From a virus (Duplodnaviria > Heunggongvirae > Uroviricota > Caudoviricetes): a stretch of 28,108 nucleotides of DNA. Positions 2,051 through 7,748 of the stretch are shown here, piece after piece. Position 1 is the first letter of the stretch; each line of letters opens with the position of its first letter. The notes beneath the pieces are model-generated. The model was not told the DNA's origin, did no database searches, and worked only from the letters and a program-made list of their open reading frames with translations. The DNA is taken from IMG/VR virus record IMGVR_UViG_2534682170_000012. The stretch is one strand, 5' to 3'. The position numbers were made by a program, and so were the translations under genes.

Positions 2051-2455
2051 TCACCTACCCTTAGTTTCGTTATAGTCACGACCAGCGATACGGTTATTAC
2101 CACCAGAAATATTTAACTCACGCCCTGATGGCTGAGTTTCCTTTTCACTGCCCGCACTTTTTAAAGCCCCGATCACCGCGTTTTTTACATCTAACGAAGC
2201 TGCTCGAAAGCGAGTAATCAACTCCTGCTCATCATCGTTATAAGTTTCAGGTGAGTGAATTCCCAACACAACATACTGAACATCAAGGCCAAAACGAGAC
2301 AGCGCTGCCAAATACGCAGCATCAGGAAAGCTATCTCCTTTCTCATATCTAAGCTGAGTTAGCTTTTTGACTCCACCAATTTCGCTCATAGCAACTTGAC
2401 TAAGCCCCAATCTTTCCCTTTCCTCACGCAACCGCTGACCAATATCATTTTTCAT
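2051..2455 (-). CDS. HTH (XRE-type) transcriptional repressor, candidate immunity repressor (P2 C / 186 CI functional analogue)
   Basis: 134 aa; N-terminal IGQRLREERERLGLSQVAMSEIGGVKKLTQLRYEKG fits an XRE helix-turn-helix. First gene of the leftward operon that ends with int, divergent from the early operon. Confidence 0.7.
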   Translation of the reverse strand: MKNDIGQRLREERERLGLSQVAMSEIGGVKKLTQLRYEKGDSFPDAAYLAALSRFGLDVQYVVLGIHSPETYNDDEQELITRFRAASLDVKNAVIGALKSAGSEKETQPSGRELNISGGNNRIAGRDYNETKGR

Positions 2456-2464
2456 ACAAAAACC

Positions 2465-2493
2465 TTGACAGGTATCTTTTTTGATACCAAAAT
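2465..2493 (+). promoter_or_regulatory. Candidate rightward early promoter with operator palindrome (lysis-lysogeny switch region)
   Basis: TTGACA at 2465-2470, a 17-bp spacer, then CAAAAT at 2488-2493. A perfect inverted repeat GGTATC-N6-GATACC at 2471-2488 fills the spacer. Lies in the 75-bp divergent intergenic region. Confidence 0.35.
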
Positions 2494-2530
2494 GATTTCA
2501 CGAGCTATTAGATGATCACAATATACCACT

Positions 2531-2737
2531 ATGAAACAAGTTCTTCACGATACCAGATCCCGCATTCCGCGTAACACCGCCACAGGTCCAAGACTGGCAC
2601 TTCGGCTGTCCCTCGAAGAGCGAGCCGTCATTGATGAAATGGCAGCTAAAGAACAACGCTCATCCTCTAACATGGCGCGCATGATCTTCCTTCGCGGCCT
2701 AGAGCTAACCCAGAAAGAACAAAACAAATCTTCCTGA
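2531..2737 (+). CDS. Small ribbon-helix-helix-like early regulator (possible Cox/Apl analogue)
   Basis: 68 aa; LALRLSLEERAVIDEMAAKEQRSSSNMARMIFLRGL has a beta-strand then two helices, as in Arc/MetJ/CopG proteins. First gene of the rightward operon. Confidence 0.4.
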   Translation: MKQVLHDTRSRIPRNTATGPRLALRLSLEERAVIDEMAAKEQRSSSNMARMIFLRGLELTQKEQNKSS

Positions 2738-2753
2738 TCAGGAGGCTAGTGGG

Positions 2754-2957
2754 ATGTCAGGTATAACCATCAATATCAATGTGAATGCCCCCTATGTATC
2801 CCTGCAGAAATATGCAGAGATAACAGGTATCCCTCTTAATACATGCAAAAAGATGTTGGCTGACGGTCGAATTATTATCCGCCCCAAACGTGCCAAAATG
2901 GAAAAGCCTGAAGTAAACCTTGTGGCGATGTTAAAAGACGCTTTGGCTAACAGCTAA
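2754..2957 (+). CDS. Small putative DNA-binding protein (excisionase/HTH-like)
   Basis: 67 aa; VSLQKYAEITGIPLNTCKKMLADGRI resembles excisionase/AlpA-type HTH; GGAGG RBS upstream. Confidence 0.35.
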   Translation: MSGITININVNAPYVSLQKYAEITGIPLNTCKKMLADGRIIIRPKRAKMEKPEVNLVAMLKDALANS

Positions 2958-2978
2958 AACAATGAACAGAGCATCATC

Positions 2979-3329
2979 ATGAAAAAACACGCTAATAATC
3001 CATACTCCAAATTTCGTAATGGCGTAGAACGCCATATACACCACGTCGCTACCAGTGCATCACGTAGTAACAATCGCTATAACCTGAACGAGACGCACGC
3101 AACACCAGATGGGCACGCTGTAAAACAAATCGGCGAACACACCTGGCTGATTGAGAAAGCTGGAATAGTGGTTCACAGATGCTCACGCAATCCGTTTACC
3201 GGAAACCGCATTTTTGCATTAAGCAACGGCGATAATCAGTTCGGGCAGGATTTTACATTGTACGAAGCACTGCGCACAGTCGATCGTTTGCTTCGCGGGC
3301 AAAGTTTTATTAAACAGGCTGATTTATAA
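2979..3329 (+). CDS. Hypothetical early protein
   Basis: 116 aa ORF in the early operon, tightly spaced with neighbours; no motif recognised. Confidence 0.4.
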   Translation: MKKHANNPYSKFRNGVERHIHHVATSASRSNNRYNLNETHATPDGHAVKQIGEHTWLIEKAGIVVHRCSRNPFTGNRIFALSNGDNQFGQDFTLYEALRTVDRLLRGQSFIKQADL

Positions 3330-3339
3330 CAGGTGCTTT

Positions 3340-3618
3340 ATGACTAAAGACCATGCACAAGGTGTATTTATCCGCTTTATTGATTTTCGCGGTGAACTGT
3401 TATTACGCGCATCAGCTATTGACGGAGTAGTTCCATCTGAAAAAAATGCAGCTACCTACGTTTATCTGAACGGTACGCGCCTGACAGTAGAACTTCCGTA
3501 CCAGACCGTTCGCGAAATAATTAACGAAGCTGAAAAAGCTCGTCAGGTTAATGGCGATGAACCCTATATCGAAATTATCTGCATGGATTCAGAAGCTGAA
3601 ATTCAGAAAGCAGATTAA
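3340..3618 (+). CDS. Hypothetical early protein
   Basis: 92 aa ORF in the early operon; no motif recognised. Confidence 0.4.
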   Translation: MTKDHAQGVFIRFIDFRGELLLRASAIDGVVPSEKNAATYVYLNGTRLTVELPYQTVREIINEAEKARQVNGDEPYIEIICMDSEAEIQKAD

Positions 3619-3629
3619 AGGGCGTTGCG

Positions 3630-3872
3630 ATGGGCAAAGAATATAAGACTCTCATAAACAAAGCACTTGAGCGTTTTTATTTTCGCTTAAGTGCATCAGG
3701 TACTCATGCTGAACGTGCAGCCCGTGACTCATTAACCAGGGCAATCCGGAGTCTGTATGACGTGGCTTTTTACGCTGATGATCTGGATGCACTTAACGAA
3801 CTTTCCGAGCTGATCTGTGCCGCAGAATGCGGGGAGCATATTGAACCGTATAAGCTGGGGAATATTGCATGA
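3630..3872 (+). CDS. Hypothetical early protein
   Basis: 80 aa ORF in the early operon. Confidence 0.4.
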   Translation: MGKEYKTLINKALERFYFRLSASGTHAERAARDSLTRAIRSLYDVAFYADDLDALNELSELICAAECGEHIEPYKLGNIA

Positions 3873-3982
3873 GTATATTTATCTCATGGCTTGTTCTGAT
3901 TATTTCGGTGGTCTGCGCCATTGGGATTATGCGAATTATTCGTTCAGTAAAAAAGATTGACCGCTTTTTCACTGGCGAATAA
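3869..3982 (+). CDS. Unannotated 37-codon small hydrophobic peptide (putative single-pass membrane peptide)
   Basis: Read by hand: ATG at 3869 overlaps the upstream stop (ATGA); translation MSIFISWLVLIISVVCAIGIMRIIRSVKKIDRFFTGE, stop at 3980-3982. Too short for the ORF track. Confidence 0.35.
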   Translation: MSIFISWLVLIISVVCAIGIMRIIRSVKKIDRFFTGE

Positions 3983-4069
3983 CAGCGCAAATAAAAACCC
4001 TAGGTTAAATAAGAAAATGTAAAAACAATCCGCATTCGCGGAGGTATTCGCACACGCCCAGGAGGTGTA

Positions 4070-4273
4070 ATGGCAATTAAGCATTTTCCTGTCGTTCGTT
4101 TCACTTCCAGAGGACGTGAATACGAAGTCGACGAACGCCTGATTACCACAATCGACAAACACCGCTCAGAAAAGGATGCACACCACATCTATCTCACTGA
4201 CGGTACTTACTTCTGCGCCACTAATGTGGTGCGGGTGAATCTTATCCGACAGGTACAGGATCCACGCAAATGA
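4070..4273 (+). CDS. Hypothetical early protein
   Basis: 67 aa ORF; AGGAGG RBS upstream; stop overlaps the next start. Confidence 0.4.
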   Translation: MAIKHFPVVRFTSRGREYEVDERLITTIDKHRSEKDAHHIYLTDGTYFCATNVVRVNLIRQVQDPRK

Positions 4274-4488
4274 GCAGGAGAAGAATCACTCGCAAACATC
4301 ACCGCACACACCTGAATTCCTCAGCAACGCTAAAGGCACTTATTAAAAGCGAGATCGGTGATTTCTTCGCGGGAGTTGGCTCGCCAGGTGAACCAGAAAC
4401 ACCAGAAGCGATACAGCGTGAGCTCATGATACGCATAGATAGCACTTTTGATTTCTTCTACAGCATGCACGGAATTAAACAGAAATGA
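4270..4488 (+). CDS. Hypothetical early protein
   Basis: 72 aa ORF, translationally coupled to the upstream gene by an ATGA overlap. Confidence 0.4.
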   Translation: MSRRRITRKHHRTHLNSSATLKALIKSEIGDFFAGVGSPGEPETPEAIQRELMIRIDSTFDFFYSMHGIKQK

Positions 4489-4596
4489 ACCTCAAGCCAG
4501 CAATAACTACTCGTAGAACGCCAATTCCTGTAACCGACCGCTTCTGAGTTTTTTGGCAGGAAGCCTTCGCACATCCTTAGTAGAGAGAATTGCAGC

Positions 4597-4986
4597 ATGA
4601 TTGACGCTCATGACTTCACAAGATGGGTGCGCACACAGGACACCCGTCTGGCTCCCGTTCTTCAGGGATTATTTGATCTCTACATCCGTAGTCGTGACAA
4701 CAGAGCACGCACTACAAAACCGGAGAATGCAGACACCCTTTATTTCACAGTAGACGACTGCTACCGCGTGGACTTAACACCACACGGGCTGGCGTTGCGC
4801 TGCCTGACACCGCATGGCGAATCACTGCTGGCGTATTACGACTCCCCGACCTCCGTATTTGCGGCAATGCTGGCGCATCACACTGCTGGCGGGTGTGCCT
4901 CGCTGAGTGAATACACCGCTGAATTTAACCGCCTTTCCACCCTCTTCTCGCAGGAGTGGCAGCGCGTGACGGGATACCAGCCATGA
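4597..4986 (+). CDS. Hypothetical early protein immediately upstream of, and coupled to, the replication gene
   Basis: 129 aa ORF; its stop overlaps the gpA start (ATGA at 4983-4986). Confidence 0.45.
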   Translation: MIDAHDFTRWVRTQDTRLAPVLQGLFDLYIRSRDNRARTTKPENADTLYFTVDDCYRVDLTPHGLALRCLTPHGESLLAYYDSPTSVFAAMLAHHTAGGCASLSEYTAEFNRLSTLFSQEWQRVTGYQP

Positions 4987-7748
4987 GTGAGTTTGCATGG
5001 AGCTGGAATGAACCACGGCCAGCCATTGATCCGGACAGATTTACGGAGCGCAGGCAGGAAACTGAAACCGAGCTGCAACGCGCCATCCGTTACTACCTTG
5101 AGGCGGACAAAAAGGCCCGTAAAGAACAGGAAGCGAAGGAGGAAGCCTTTTTCGCACAATCCACCGTGGGTAAAAAACTCATGGCATCCCTTGAGGAAGC
5201 CGGACAGCGTGAAAAGCTGGCACAAAGCATCATCAGCAAGCGTCAGGCAACAGAACAAGACCCGGTGGCCCGTGCTTTTGCCACACTGAAGGTGCTTCCC
5301 GTTTATCTGCGTGAACCTCTGAGCCGCCACCTCTCTTTCCTGCGCAAAAAACAGGAATCCGATCGTCAGAAAGGCAAAAAGAGCTGGCAGGCTGAACGCT
5401 ACGCGCGCGGAACCCTGCGCAAAATATTCGTACGTCTGGACCGCACCGACAGCCGTTGGCTGACACCGGGTTATCGGTCCCTTGCCGGACGTGAACGCCT
5501 GGACGATTTGCTTTCCCTGCCGCAACTCAACAAACACCAGATACAGACGCTGGCCACCATGACGGCGGCGATGTTCAGCAGCACCTTCGAAAAACTCTGC
5601 GATGGTTTTGGCGCGACCGATGGCGAGCTGACCATGGATGTAACGCTGAAGGCGTATCAGATGCTGGCCCGCATGGCGTTACACTTGCACGCCATGCCTC
5701 CGCATTATGACGCACTGACAACAGACAAAGACCGGAGGAACGAACCGGACACAGAACTGCTGCCGGGCGCAATCCTTCGCCTGACCTGTGCGGAATGGTG
5801 GAAACGCAAACTGTGGCTGTTACGTTGCGAGTGGAGAGAAGAACAACTCCGCGCCGCCTGTCTGGTTTCCAGAAAAACATCGCCCTATTTGAGCCAGGAC
5901 GCGTTAAGCGAGTTTCGCGCACAGCGCGAGAAAACACGCGATTTCCTGAAAAGTTTCATGCTGGAAAACGAAGACGGGTTCACGATTGATCTCGAGACGG
6001 TGTATTACGCGGGAGTAAGTAACCCGGTTCACCGTAAGGCAGAAATGATGGCCACCATGAAGGGGCTGGAACTTCTGGCCGAAGCCCGTGGCGACAAAGC
6101 GGTGTTTCTGACTGTCACCTGCCCGTCAAAATACCACGCCACAACAGAGAACGGTCATCCGAATCCCAAATGGAACGGGGCCACCATGCGCGACTCCAGC
6201 GATTACCTGGTTAACACGTTTTTTGCGGCGGTCCGCAAAAAACTGAACCGCGACGGTCTTCGCTGGTATGGCATCCGCACGGTGGAGCCTCACCATGACG
6301 GCACCGTGCACTGGCATATGATGGTCTTTGCTCATCCGGAAGAAATCGACAGCATCGTGGCCATCACCCGCGATATTGCCATTCAGGAAGACCGCCACGA
6401 GCTGGGCAATGATATTACTCCGCGCTTTAAGGCGGAGTATGTCGACGGCTCAAAAGGCACACCAACCAGCTATATCGCGACCTACATCGGAAAGAACCTG
6501 GACAGCCGCGCCGTGGATGGCATCGACCCGAAAACGGGCAAGCCACGCGTTGACCACGAAACCGGAAAATCAATGGCCGAGAGTGTGGAGCGCGCCATCG
6601 GCTGGGCGCGCCTTCATCGGGTCCGCCAGTTCCAGTTCTTTGGCATCCCCTCCCGTCAGGTGTGGCGTGAACTGCGCCGCCTTGCCAGCCAGATGGCACG
6701 CAACCCGGAAGGCCCGCAACGACTGAAAGATGACGCAATGGATGCGGTACTCGCTGCCGCCGATGCCGGGTGTTTTGCCACCTACATTGAAAAACAGGGC
6801 GGCGTACTTGTTCCACGCAAAGACTACCTGATTCGCACCGCCTACGACCTCGCAGATGAGCTGAATGATTACGGCGAACAGAGCGTACAGATTTACGGGA
6901 TCTGGTCACCACTCATCGGGGAATCCTCCCGTGTGTGCACGCATCCGGATAACTGGAAACTGGTAAGACGTAAACCGGAAACGGAAGACAGCGCCCGCGA
7001 AAATGGTTTTGACCTTCAGGGCGGCCCTGCCGCCCCTTGGACTCGTGGCAATAACTGTCCCCGTGTACAGGAAACGGACAACAACGGGACAGAACAGCCG
7101 GAAGAACGGCCAGCACCGTGGCCGCGGCTTCCTGAAGGCGTTGACGTGAATGAATGGATGCGCTCACTGAAACGGCACGAACGCCGGGCACTGATGCGTT
7201 CGCTGCGTGACAAACAGGCAAAAAACAGCAGTGATGAAATGCAGAACTGGACACAGAGCCGCAAACAGCCACAGCCTTTGCCTGATAACCACGAGTTACT
7301 CGCTAAAGAATGGCGGGAGTCTGCTGAATCTCTCGGCCTGCATATCGGTGAACAGCAGATGCAGCACCTGTTACGAGGCGGCAGTCTGTACGTTGGCGGC
7401 AGCATCATTGCACCGCAGGGATTTGAAATTGTACGCAAACAGGATACCCGCCCGGACAGCCGAATCACGCAGCTCTGGCAACGCCTGAGTCGTAATCACG
7501 GCGTAAGCAGCACGGAGATCCGCCATAACCCGGTCGCCAGCTATCTGGAACAACTAGAGGCATCAGACCCTGAAGCCGCCGCACGCCTGGCATCCACACT
7601 TCAGCAAGACCAGAACACCATGAAAACACCCGTTACCGTACTTTCTGACATGCTGCGCGCCATCCGCGACGCAGAGCACGCACAGAGAATCAGTGAAACC
7701 ACTAAACATGCTCGCAAAAAAATCAGTTTATTGCATCGAACACGATAG
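4983..7748 (+). CDS. A: Rolling-circle replication initiation endonuclease, P2 gpA family
   Basis: VEPHHDGTVHWHMMVF (HUH-type motif) and paired tyrosines YIATYIGKN (Tyr codons at 6471-6473 and 6483-6485) match the remembered P2 gpA active region. Start taken as the ATG at 4983 rather than the ORF-track start at 4956. Confidence 0.88.
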   Translation: MSEFAWSWNEPRPAIDPDRFTERRQETETELQRAIRYYLEADKKARKEQEAKEEAFFAQSTVGKKLMASLEEAGQREKLAQSIISKRQATEQDPVARAFATLKVLPVYLREPLSRHLSFLRKKQESDRQKGKKSWQAERYARGTLRKIFVRLDRTDSRWLTPGYRSLAGRERLDDLLSLPQLNKHQIQTLATMTAAMFSSTFEKLCDGFGATDGELTMDVTLKAYQMLARMALHLHAMPPHYDALTTDKDRRNEPDTELLPGAILRLTCAEWWKRKLWLLRCEWREEQLRAACLVSRKTSPYLSQDALSEFRAQREKTRDFLKSFMLENEDGFTIDLETVYYAGVSNPVHRKAEMMATMKGLELLAEARGDKAVFLTVTCPSKYHATTENGHPNPKWNGATMRDSSDYLVNTFFAAVRKKLNRDGLRWYGIRTVEPHHDGTVHWHMMVFAHPEEIDSIVAITRDIAIQEDRHELGNDITPRFKAEYVDGSKGTPTSYIATYIGKNLDSRAVDGIDPKTGKPRVDHETGKSMAESVERAIGWARLHRVRQFQFFGIPSRQVWRELRRLASQMARNPEGPQRLKDDAMDAVLAAADAGCFATYIEKQGGVLVPRKDYLIRTAYDLADELNDYGEQSVQIYGIWSPLIGESSRVCTHPDNWKLVRRKPETEDSARENGFDLQGGPAAPWTRGNNCPRVQETDNNGTEQPEERPAPWPRLPEGVDVNEWMRSLKRHERRALMRSLRDKQAKNSSDEMQNWTQSRKQPQPLPDNHELLAKEWRESAESLGLHIGEQQMQHLLRGGSLYVGGSIIAPQGFEIVRKQDTRPDSRITQLWQRLSRNHGVSSTEIRHNPVASYLEQLEASDPEAAARLASTLQQDQNTMKTPVTVLSDMLRAIRDAEHAQRISETTKHARKKISLLHRTR

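Follow-up and report, generated by a model that had tools for sequence, protein, structure and literature searches.

We analyzed a window of 28,108 nucleotides from a virus of the class Caudoviricetes (IMG/VR record IMGVR_UViG_2534682170_000012) and found that a short open reading frame (ORF) at 3869..3982 on the + strand is a gene under purifying selection, always coupled to the DUF4754 gene that precedes it and encoding a hydrophobic helix. It starts with ATG and runs for 37 codons to a TAA stop at 3980-3982; the product is the 37-residue peptide MSIFISWLVLIISVVCAIGIMRIIRSVKKIDRFFTGE. The mini-ORF is almost certainly a real translated gene. Its product is an uncharacterised conserved hypothetical protein, a sound but ordinary candidate and not the discovery of a missing gene.

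The ATG (3869-3871) overlaps the TGA stop (3870-3872) of the DUF4754 gene (3630..3872, + strand, 80 residues; Pfam PF15946, E = 2e-54), which is the constant 5' neighbour of the mini-gene. The resulting ATGA (3869..3872, + strand) is a candidate signal for termination-reinitiation coupling. A preliminary description of this DNA had reported the overlap and the 37-codon frame that it opens, and both are exact in the sequence. A Shine-Dalgarno (SD)-like GGGGA is located at 3857..3861 on the + strand, 7 nt before the ATG and within the last DUF4754 codons. Its duplex with the 3' end of 16S rRNA (-5.5 kcal/mol) equals or beats those of the DUF4754 gene (-4.8 kcal/mol) and of the 92-residue gene further upstream (-3.8 kcal/mol).

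The peptide consists of two predicted parts. Codons 3-21 (3875..3931, + strand) encode the predicted transmembrane segment IFISWLVLIISVVCAIGIM, with a best 19-residue Kyte-Doolittle mean (KD19) of 2.81, and codons 22-37 (3932..3979, + strand) encode a basic juxtamembrane tail, RIIRSVKKIDRFFTGE, with a net charge of +3 and a predicted cytoplasmic location. AlphaFold2, supplied with the family alignment, modelled the peptide as a single helix spanning residues 2-35 (mean predicted local distance difference test score, pLDDT, 87). These results agree with the one predicted transmembrane helix and basic C-terminus described earlier. The two strands of the window together contain 143 ATG-started ORFs with 30-50 codons, of which one reaches a KD19 of at least 2.5, and shuffled sequences give 0.1. 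In a separate scan of the window's small ORFs with other limits, the mini-ORF ranked top in hydrophobicity (2.81).

Conservation of the peptide gene across related loci

We pooled 231 loci from IMG/VR, metagenomes, GTDB genomes, RefSeq and phage records. The DUF4754 gene was used as the anchor because selection for intact copies of the peptide was to be avoided. A hidden Markov model search of all ORFs in these loci detected the peptide gene in every DUF4754 locus with enough downstream DNA; the sole two misses were contigs cut just past DUF4754. The ATGA overlap is retained in 217 of 220 loci, including three divergent ones (L089, L090, and L094) in which the surrounding codons differ, and this conserved start/stop overlap fits the translational coupling proposed in the preliminary description. 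About 212 of the 220 loci carry an intact peptide gene.

Selection acts on the encoded amino acids. Over 75 haplotypes, the ratio of nonsynonymous to synonymous polymorphism (pN/pS) was 0.315 in the peptide frame, the two alternative frames giving 1.10 and 1.51. The + strand frame 0 alone was open in all 81 haplotypes scored for open frames, and the best antisense frame was open in 30 of the 81. Residues M1, S6, W7, I23, and K28 are invariant among the 75 haplotypes, and L10, I11, G19, I24, I30, E/D31, and F34 are nearly so. In products of 37-45 residues, the core MSIFISW...AIGIMRII..K.IE.(F/L)F is common to the profile hits and to each of the 45 database clusters.

Conservation is the real evidence that the ORF is not a chance one, and the three divergent loci provide the strongest test of it. 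Their DUF4754 proteins are only 26-42% identical to that of the window and their synonymous sites are saturated (pS 0.68-0.84), but their peptides remain 53-78% identical with a pN/pS of 0.25-0.38. All three keep the length class of the peptide, the ATGA overlap and an upstream SD-like purine run; the purine-rich motifs preceding the peptide ATG in divergent loci are AAGGGGAA, GAGGAG, and GGAGA. In Escherichia albertii, DUF4754 is 76% and the peptide 83-84% identical to the window. By these sequence comparisons the peptide gene appears to be the best conserved gene of its neighbourhood. The earlier note had proposed conservation of the frame in related prophages as a check, and the frame proved to be kept, and kept better than the neighbouring DUF4754. 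We also observed that the relative rates depend on the depth of comparison. Between lineages, DUF4754 (down to 26% identity) evolves much faster than the coupled peptide (at least 51%), whereas within the E. coli clade the order is reversed, pN/pS in a narrower sample of that clade being 0.06 for DUF4754, 0.28 for the peptide, and 0.23 for the 92-residue gene.

The length of the peptide varies among the loci. The 37-residue form of the window is present in 188 of the 220 loci. A 41-residue form occurs in 15 loci of divergent lineages, from genomes whose module was absent from the complete E. coli genomes. In nine loci, one T is lost from the T5 run at 3965-3969 (codons F33-F34), giving a 45-residue form that ends in a ...RFSL(V/T/M)NN..KT.. 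tail. According to the 45- and 41-residue variants, the last 4-5 residues of the peptide are replaceable. A truncated 30-residue form ending in ...SVKKD is present in four loci and would arise, by our own reckoning, from the gain of one A in the A6 run at 3949-3954 (V27-K28-K29). The T5 and A6 homopolymer runs inside the mini-gene are the sites of the length variants, and the variation of the tail looks like that of slippage-prone sequence. The remaining four loci carry broken copies. One of them is phage 503458 (L004, NC_049341.1), in which DUF4754 and the peptide gene are both frameshifted, either by prophage decay or by sequencing error; it is the only broken copy among the phage records of the collection.

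The mini-ORF had been described as unannotated, which does not hold for public records: it is called by RefSeq/PGAP and is present in the record of phage P88, although the window's own annotation could not be checked. The P88 gene gp07 (YP_009113050.1, named 'membrane protein') is the same gene, with a product 92% identical to the window peptide. In an E. coli genome that is 99.9% identical, RefSeq places WP_000021671.1 ('hypothetical protein') at the window coordinates, and WP_000021671.1, WP_000021663.1, and WP_000021655.1 are the RefSeq entries at the peptide position in related prophages. The O157:H7 variant is a 'Prophage membrane protein' in UniRef. P88 gp07 and these RefSeq and UniRef entries are 81-100% identical to the window peptide, have 37 residues, and follow DUF4754 with the same ATGA; we found no substantive difference between them and the window gene, and none has an assigned function or a Pfam, PHROG, or NCBIfam family. 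The existence of the gene is therefore not news, since annotation pipelines already call it.

The gene is also widespread. The exact window peptide occurs on 597 contigs, where it is labelled 'hypothetical protein'. A 131-nt query matched 1051 of 5426 complete E. coli genomes, many O157:H7 strains among them, and an annotated coding sequence covered the match in 58 of 60 sampled rows. A few phage records omit the gene, e.g., NC_049344. The peptide family extends to Salmonella and E. albertii prophages and to phage Shae_phiSM of Citrobacter rodentium.

Proposed action of the peptide and competing explanations

Our proposal for how the gene works is as follows. Ribosomes that finish DUF4754 at its TGA would restart at the overlapping ATG, aided by the weak SD-like GGGGA, as suggested by reinitiation at overlapping stop and start codons. 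The peptide would then be co-produced with DUF4754 shortly after infection or induction, once the early promoter Pe is derepressed, and would be repressed in the lysogen; this timing follows from the position of the gene in the operon, by analogy with related phages. Residues 3-21 would cross the inner membrane, placing the two-residue N-terminus in the periplasm and the basic tail (R22, K28, K29, and R32) on the cytoplasmic side. A single-pass membrane peptide with this N-out/C-in topology is probable under the positive-inside rule. There it may serve as a small transmembrane ligand that binds another membrane protein and alters its activity during takeover of the cell by the phage. Candidate partners are a host inner-membrane protein and, in a superinfecting phage, the part of the injection machinery that inserts into the membrane. 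Taken as a whole, this is the explanation that we consider best, with slightly better than even confidence. Its last element, a specific partner-binding modulator in preference to the rivals below, is put forward more tentatively, at somewhat less than even confidence.

We propose partner binding because the conservation is residue-specific and not merely hydrophobic, because the most conserved positions (S6, L10, S13, A17, I24, K28, and E31) share one side of the helical wheel, and because precedents exist in T4 Imm and in phage peptides that bind YfiN. The E. coli peptides MgrB, AcrZ, MgtS, and CydX, of about 30-50 residues, act by binding a larger inner-membrane protein. They have the same size and proposed mode of action as the window peptide, with no sequence relation to it. 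The same is true of peptides of PB1-like phages that bind YfiN, a diguanylate cyclase of Pseudomonas aeruginosa (PMC8085984). In T4, the early gene product Imm, a small protein of the inner membrane, binds the membrane-inserting tape-measure protein and thereby blocks superinfection (bioRxiv 10.64898/2026.03.06.709160). The likeness to T4 Imm, an early gene of a contractile-tailed phage with a small inner-membrane product, would lie in operon position and the predicted hydrophobic helix. However, Imm has 83 residues (9.3 kDa), more than twice the length of the peptide, and no Pfam or PHROG similarity was detected between the two.

Several observations weigh against our proposal. Variability along the helix shows no significant periodicity (permutation p = 0.16), and the argument from a conserved face is only suggestive. 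We found no homologue of known function and no reports of expression, localisation, or phenotype in the literature. The C-terminal 4-5 residues tolerate frameshifts, as in the 45-residue variants, and truncations to 30 residues occur; part of the tail is therefore dispensable. The copy is broken in about 4% of the loci, so the gene is not essential to the resident prophage. P2 and 186 do without any such peptide.

Searches for relatives were uninformative as to function. Sequence searches of Pfam, PHROG, NCBIfam, PADLOC, and the PDB with the peptide or its profile returned no usable relative. A Pfam scan of the peptide gave a sub-threshold match to DUF2975 only and no toxin, Kil, DicB, holin, or Hok-type family, and the PHROGs contained no match. 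Homologues were searched for with the peptide extended by three upstream codons as the query, and a profile search of 1.84 billion representatives yielded 18 matches, all of them short peptides of the same family. Literature searches returned nothing on the peptide, DUF4754, the early genes of Xuanwuvirus, or fil and dhr of phage 186.

Among the rival explanations, the one that survives best holds that the peptide is a membrane anchor or subunit that tethers the soluble helical DUF4754 protein to the inner membrane, a complex of fixed ratio being the active unit. Coupled overlapping cistrons often encode partners, and the peptide gene and DUF4754 are never found apart, with the ATGA overlap always kept. 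Nevertheless, DUF4754 falls to 26-42% identity in loci where the peptide stays at 53-78%, which is unlike tightly co-adapted surfaces. The DUF4754 structure offers no hint in this direction either: its AlphaFold2 model is helical (pLDDT 88) and matched nothing in the PDB at E <= 0.001 by Foldseek, the best hits being generic helical bundles (E = 1.4). We consider an anchor unlikely.

A rival that we rate as somewhat less probable still is a putative effector like Kil, as suggested in the preliminary description, or like a type I toxin, which would act without a protein partner by membrane damage, depolarisation, or a block of division, in an early shutdown of the host. Type I toxins such as Hok/Gef, TisB, Ldr, Ibs, and ShoB are 19-50 residues long, with one hydrophobic helix and charged ends, and the peptide resembles Hok, TisB, or Ldr-type toxins in size, hydrophobic helix (37 residues, KD19 2.81), and basic tail. 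In addition, the analogous part of the early operon of 186 carries fil, a cell division inhibitor, and dhr, which fill a comparable slot just before the terminator tR1 and the mid-operon gap. Lambda Kil, Rac KilR, Qin DicB, and 186 Fil are likewise small and encoded in early operons of phages or in operons of cryptic prophages. They have 47-75 residues and are not simple single-pass hydrophobic helices. DicB is reported to affect inner-membrane proteins as well (PMC6832061). The peptide, however, has no profile match to toxin, Kil, DicB, or holin families, and hhalign gave a probability of only 0.9% for 186 Fil. Type I toxins are separate transcription units under antisense RNA, whereas the peptide gene lies embedded in an operon, coupled and lacking a separate promoter. 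A toxin paired with an antisense RNA was rejected: a consensus scan of the minus strand from 2300 to 5200 revealed no promoter-like site, there was no Rfam match to an antitoxin RNA, and neither the antisense frame nor the antisense sequence of the mini-gene is specially conserved. The invariance of S6, W7, and K28 also exceeds what simple membrane disruption needs.

Translation of the mini-gene might instead matter only in cis, ribosomes covering the RNA between DUF4754 and a downstream hairpin in an anti-polarity or leader-like role, with a functionless peptide. The hairpin, 45 nt past the stop, is conserved as + strand RNA, and P2 and 186 have terminators in the analogous mid-operon gap. 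Against this, purifying selection acts on the amino acid sequence and not just on the frame being open (pN/pS 0.3, invariant residues), no + strand terminator-like site is present, and the loci do not retain the long-range pairing of the ORF end with the gap. On the same grounds a leader peptide or attenuator was rejected as a candidate, and action in cis alone appears quite improbable. The remaining rival, a chance ORF whose nucleotide conservation reflects recent ancestry or an overlapping element in another frame or strand, could appeal to most sampled loci being more than 90% identical in DNA and to an ATGA-started open frame of 37 codons not being rare in itself, but it is effectively refuted by the conservation of the gene at saturated synonymous divergence, by other frames with a pN/pS above 1 and with stops, and by a hydrophobicity unique among the small ORFs of the window.

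Two further candidates were examined and rejected. A holin or antiholin was set aside on the location of the gene, which lies in the early operon between a Cox-like gene and replication gene A and not in a lysis cassette. A programmed -1 frameshift fusing DUF4754 to the peptide was rejected as well: the peptide frame (-1) is open only from 3854, and no slippery heptamer is common to L089, L090, and L094.

To return to the partner-binding modulator, it is conceivable, at slightly lower confidence than partner binding itself, that the peptide is the founding member of an undescribed family of early transmembrane effectors of phages and would bind one specific inner-membrane machine and switch it off. 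Were this so, the target could be a host complex or, as for T4 Imm, the membrane-inserting tape-measure channel of a superinfecting phage, and the peptide together with the co-varying hairpin would mark where a conserved module for host takeover, composed of DUF4761, DUF4754, and the peptide, ends. Small phage membrane peptides are under-studied, and the few that have been worked out, T4 Imm, DicB, and the YfiN-binding peptides, have each uncovered a precise grip on a membrane machine of host or phage. About a fifth of complete E. coli genomes carry the gene, O157:H7 strains included. Being under selection, more conserved than its neighbours, and very common in E. coli including pathogenic lineages, the peptide is an easily justified target, and it is short enough for synthesis.

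The downstream gap and the early operon

The mini-gene is followed by an A-rich gap of 87 bp (3983..4069, + strand), in line with the roughly 90 bp of non-coding DNA noted earlier. The gap ends in the strong SD sequence AGGAGG (4060-4065) of the next gene, whose ATG is at 4070. About 45 nt past the peptide stop it contains a hairpin of 5 bp, TCCGC-ATTC-GCGGA (4029..4042, + strand), preceded by an A-rich run. All five pairs are kept in 182 of 187 scored loci, the divergent ones included, while the loops vary. Two independent compensatory double changes were observed: TCCGT/ACGGA, with C-G replaced by T-A at the loop-closing pair, in 27 loci, and TCTGC/GCAGA, with C-G replaced by T-A at the third pair, in seven loci. 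G.U pairs in seven loci allow pairing only in + strand RNA, which argues for a hairpin of the + strand. It scores as terminator-like on the minus strand. On the + strand no U-run follows it, so that it does not resemble an intrinsic terminator. The matching position in P2 and 186 is occupied by mid-operon terminators. A longer stem pairing the ORF end (3975-3981) with 4045-4051 was present in the minimum free energy fold; it was rejected as a conserved element, as it is not kept across loci and the z-score of the fold is only -1.3.

The hairpin lies a short way to the left of a mosaic junction at about 4050-4065. Related prophages share sequence to just before the next SD, beyond which their genes differ; E. 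albertii has a 137-residue gene there and L094 a 119-residue gene.

The window belongs to a P88-like, P2-family prophage of E. coli. Over 1.2 kb, the region gave matches of 88-93% to P88-like phages (genus Xuanwuvirus, family Peduoviridae, the P2 family), and its matches to E. coli prophages reach 99.9%. We compared the layout with the P88 record and with RefSeq prophages. It is P2-like, with minus-strand integrase and repressor genes, a promoter-like site, and then a + strand operon extending to replication gene A. The promoter-like site, TTGACA-17-CAAAAT (2465..2493, + strand), is a consensus match at the head of the operon and is presumably Pe, its position being analogous to that of Pe/pR in P2 and 186. 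Downstream, all on the + strand, follow an Arc-like gene (2531), a Cox-like gene (2754), a DUF4761 gene (2979), the 92-residue gene (3340), DUF4754, and the peptide gene, which is the last cistron of the first early-operon block. Beyond the gap are three small genes (4070, 4270, and 4597) and the replication endonuclease A gene (4956/4983-7748). By analogy with P2 and 186, 'early operon' seems a fair label for these + strand genes, and the early-operon location given in the preliminary description agrees with this P2-family layout, between the Cox-like gene and gene A. The early regions of P2 and 186 contain no small hydrophobic ORF. PDB sequence searches with DUF4754, DUF4761, and the 92-residue protein returned no meaningful match.

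Three minor observations concern the operon and its relatives. At 2531-2737, a + strand ORF of 68 residues matches PHROG 3431 'Arc-like repressor' (E = 1e-28) and has no SD-like site (duplex +0.4 kcal/mol). At apparently the same place in related prophages, RefSeq has a 45-residue 'hypothetical protein' on the minus strand (WP_001673482.1, window equivalent about 2545-2682), so that the two annotations conflict. In the closest complete genome, NZ_CP195454.1 (L002, 99.9% identity over window 3300-4500), the IS5-family element ISKpn26 is inserted between the repressor and Cox-like genes (equivalent to window positions of about 2500-2750); the element is absent from the window. The replication endonuclease of that genome (equivalent to window 4983-7748) is marked as frameshifted, a defect that the window copy does not have. 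Finally, a 226-kb contig of a Gram-positive assembly, 'Vagococcus sp. WN89Y' (NZ_JBQPOM010000071.1, L005), holds the enterobacterial module with DUF4754 at 96% identity, which probably reflects contamination or a mislabelled contig.

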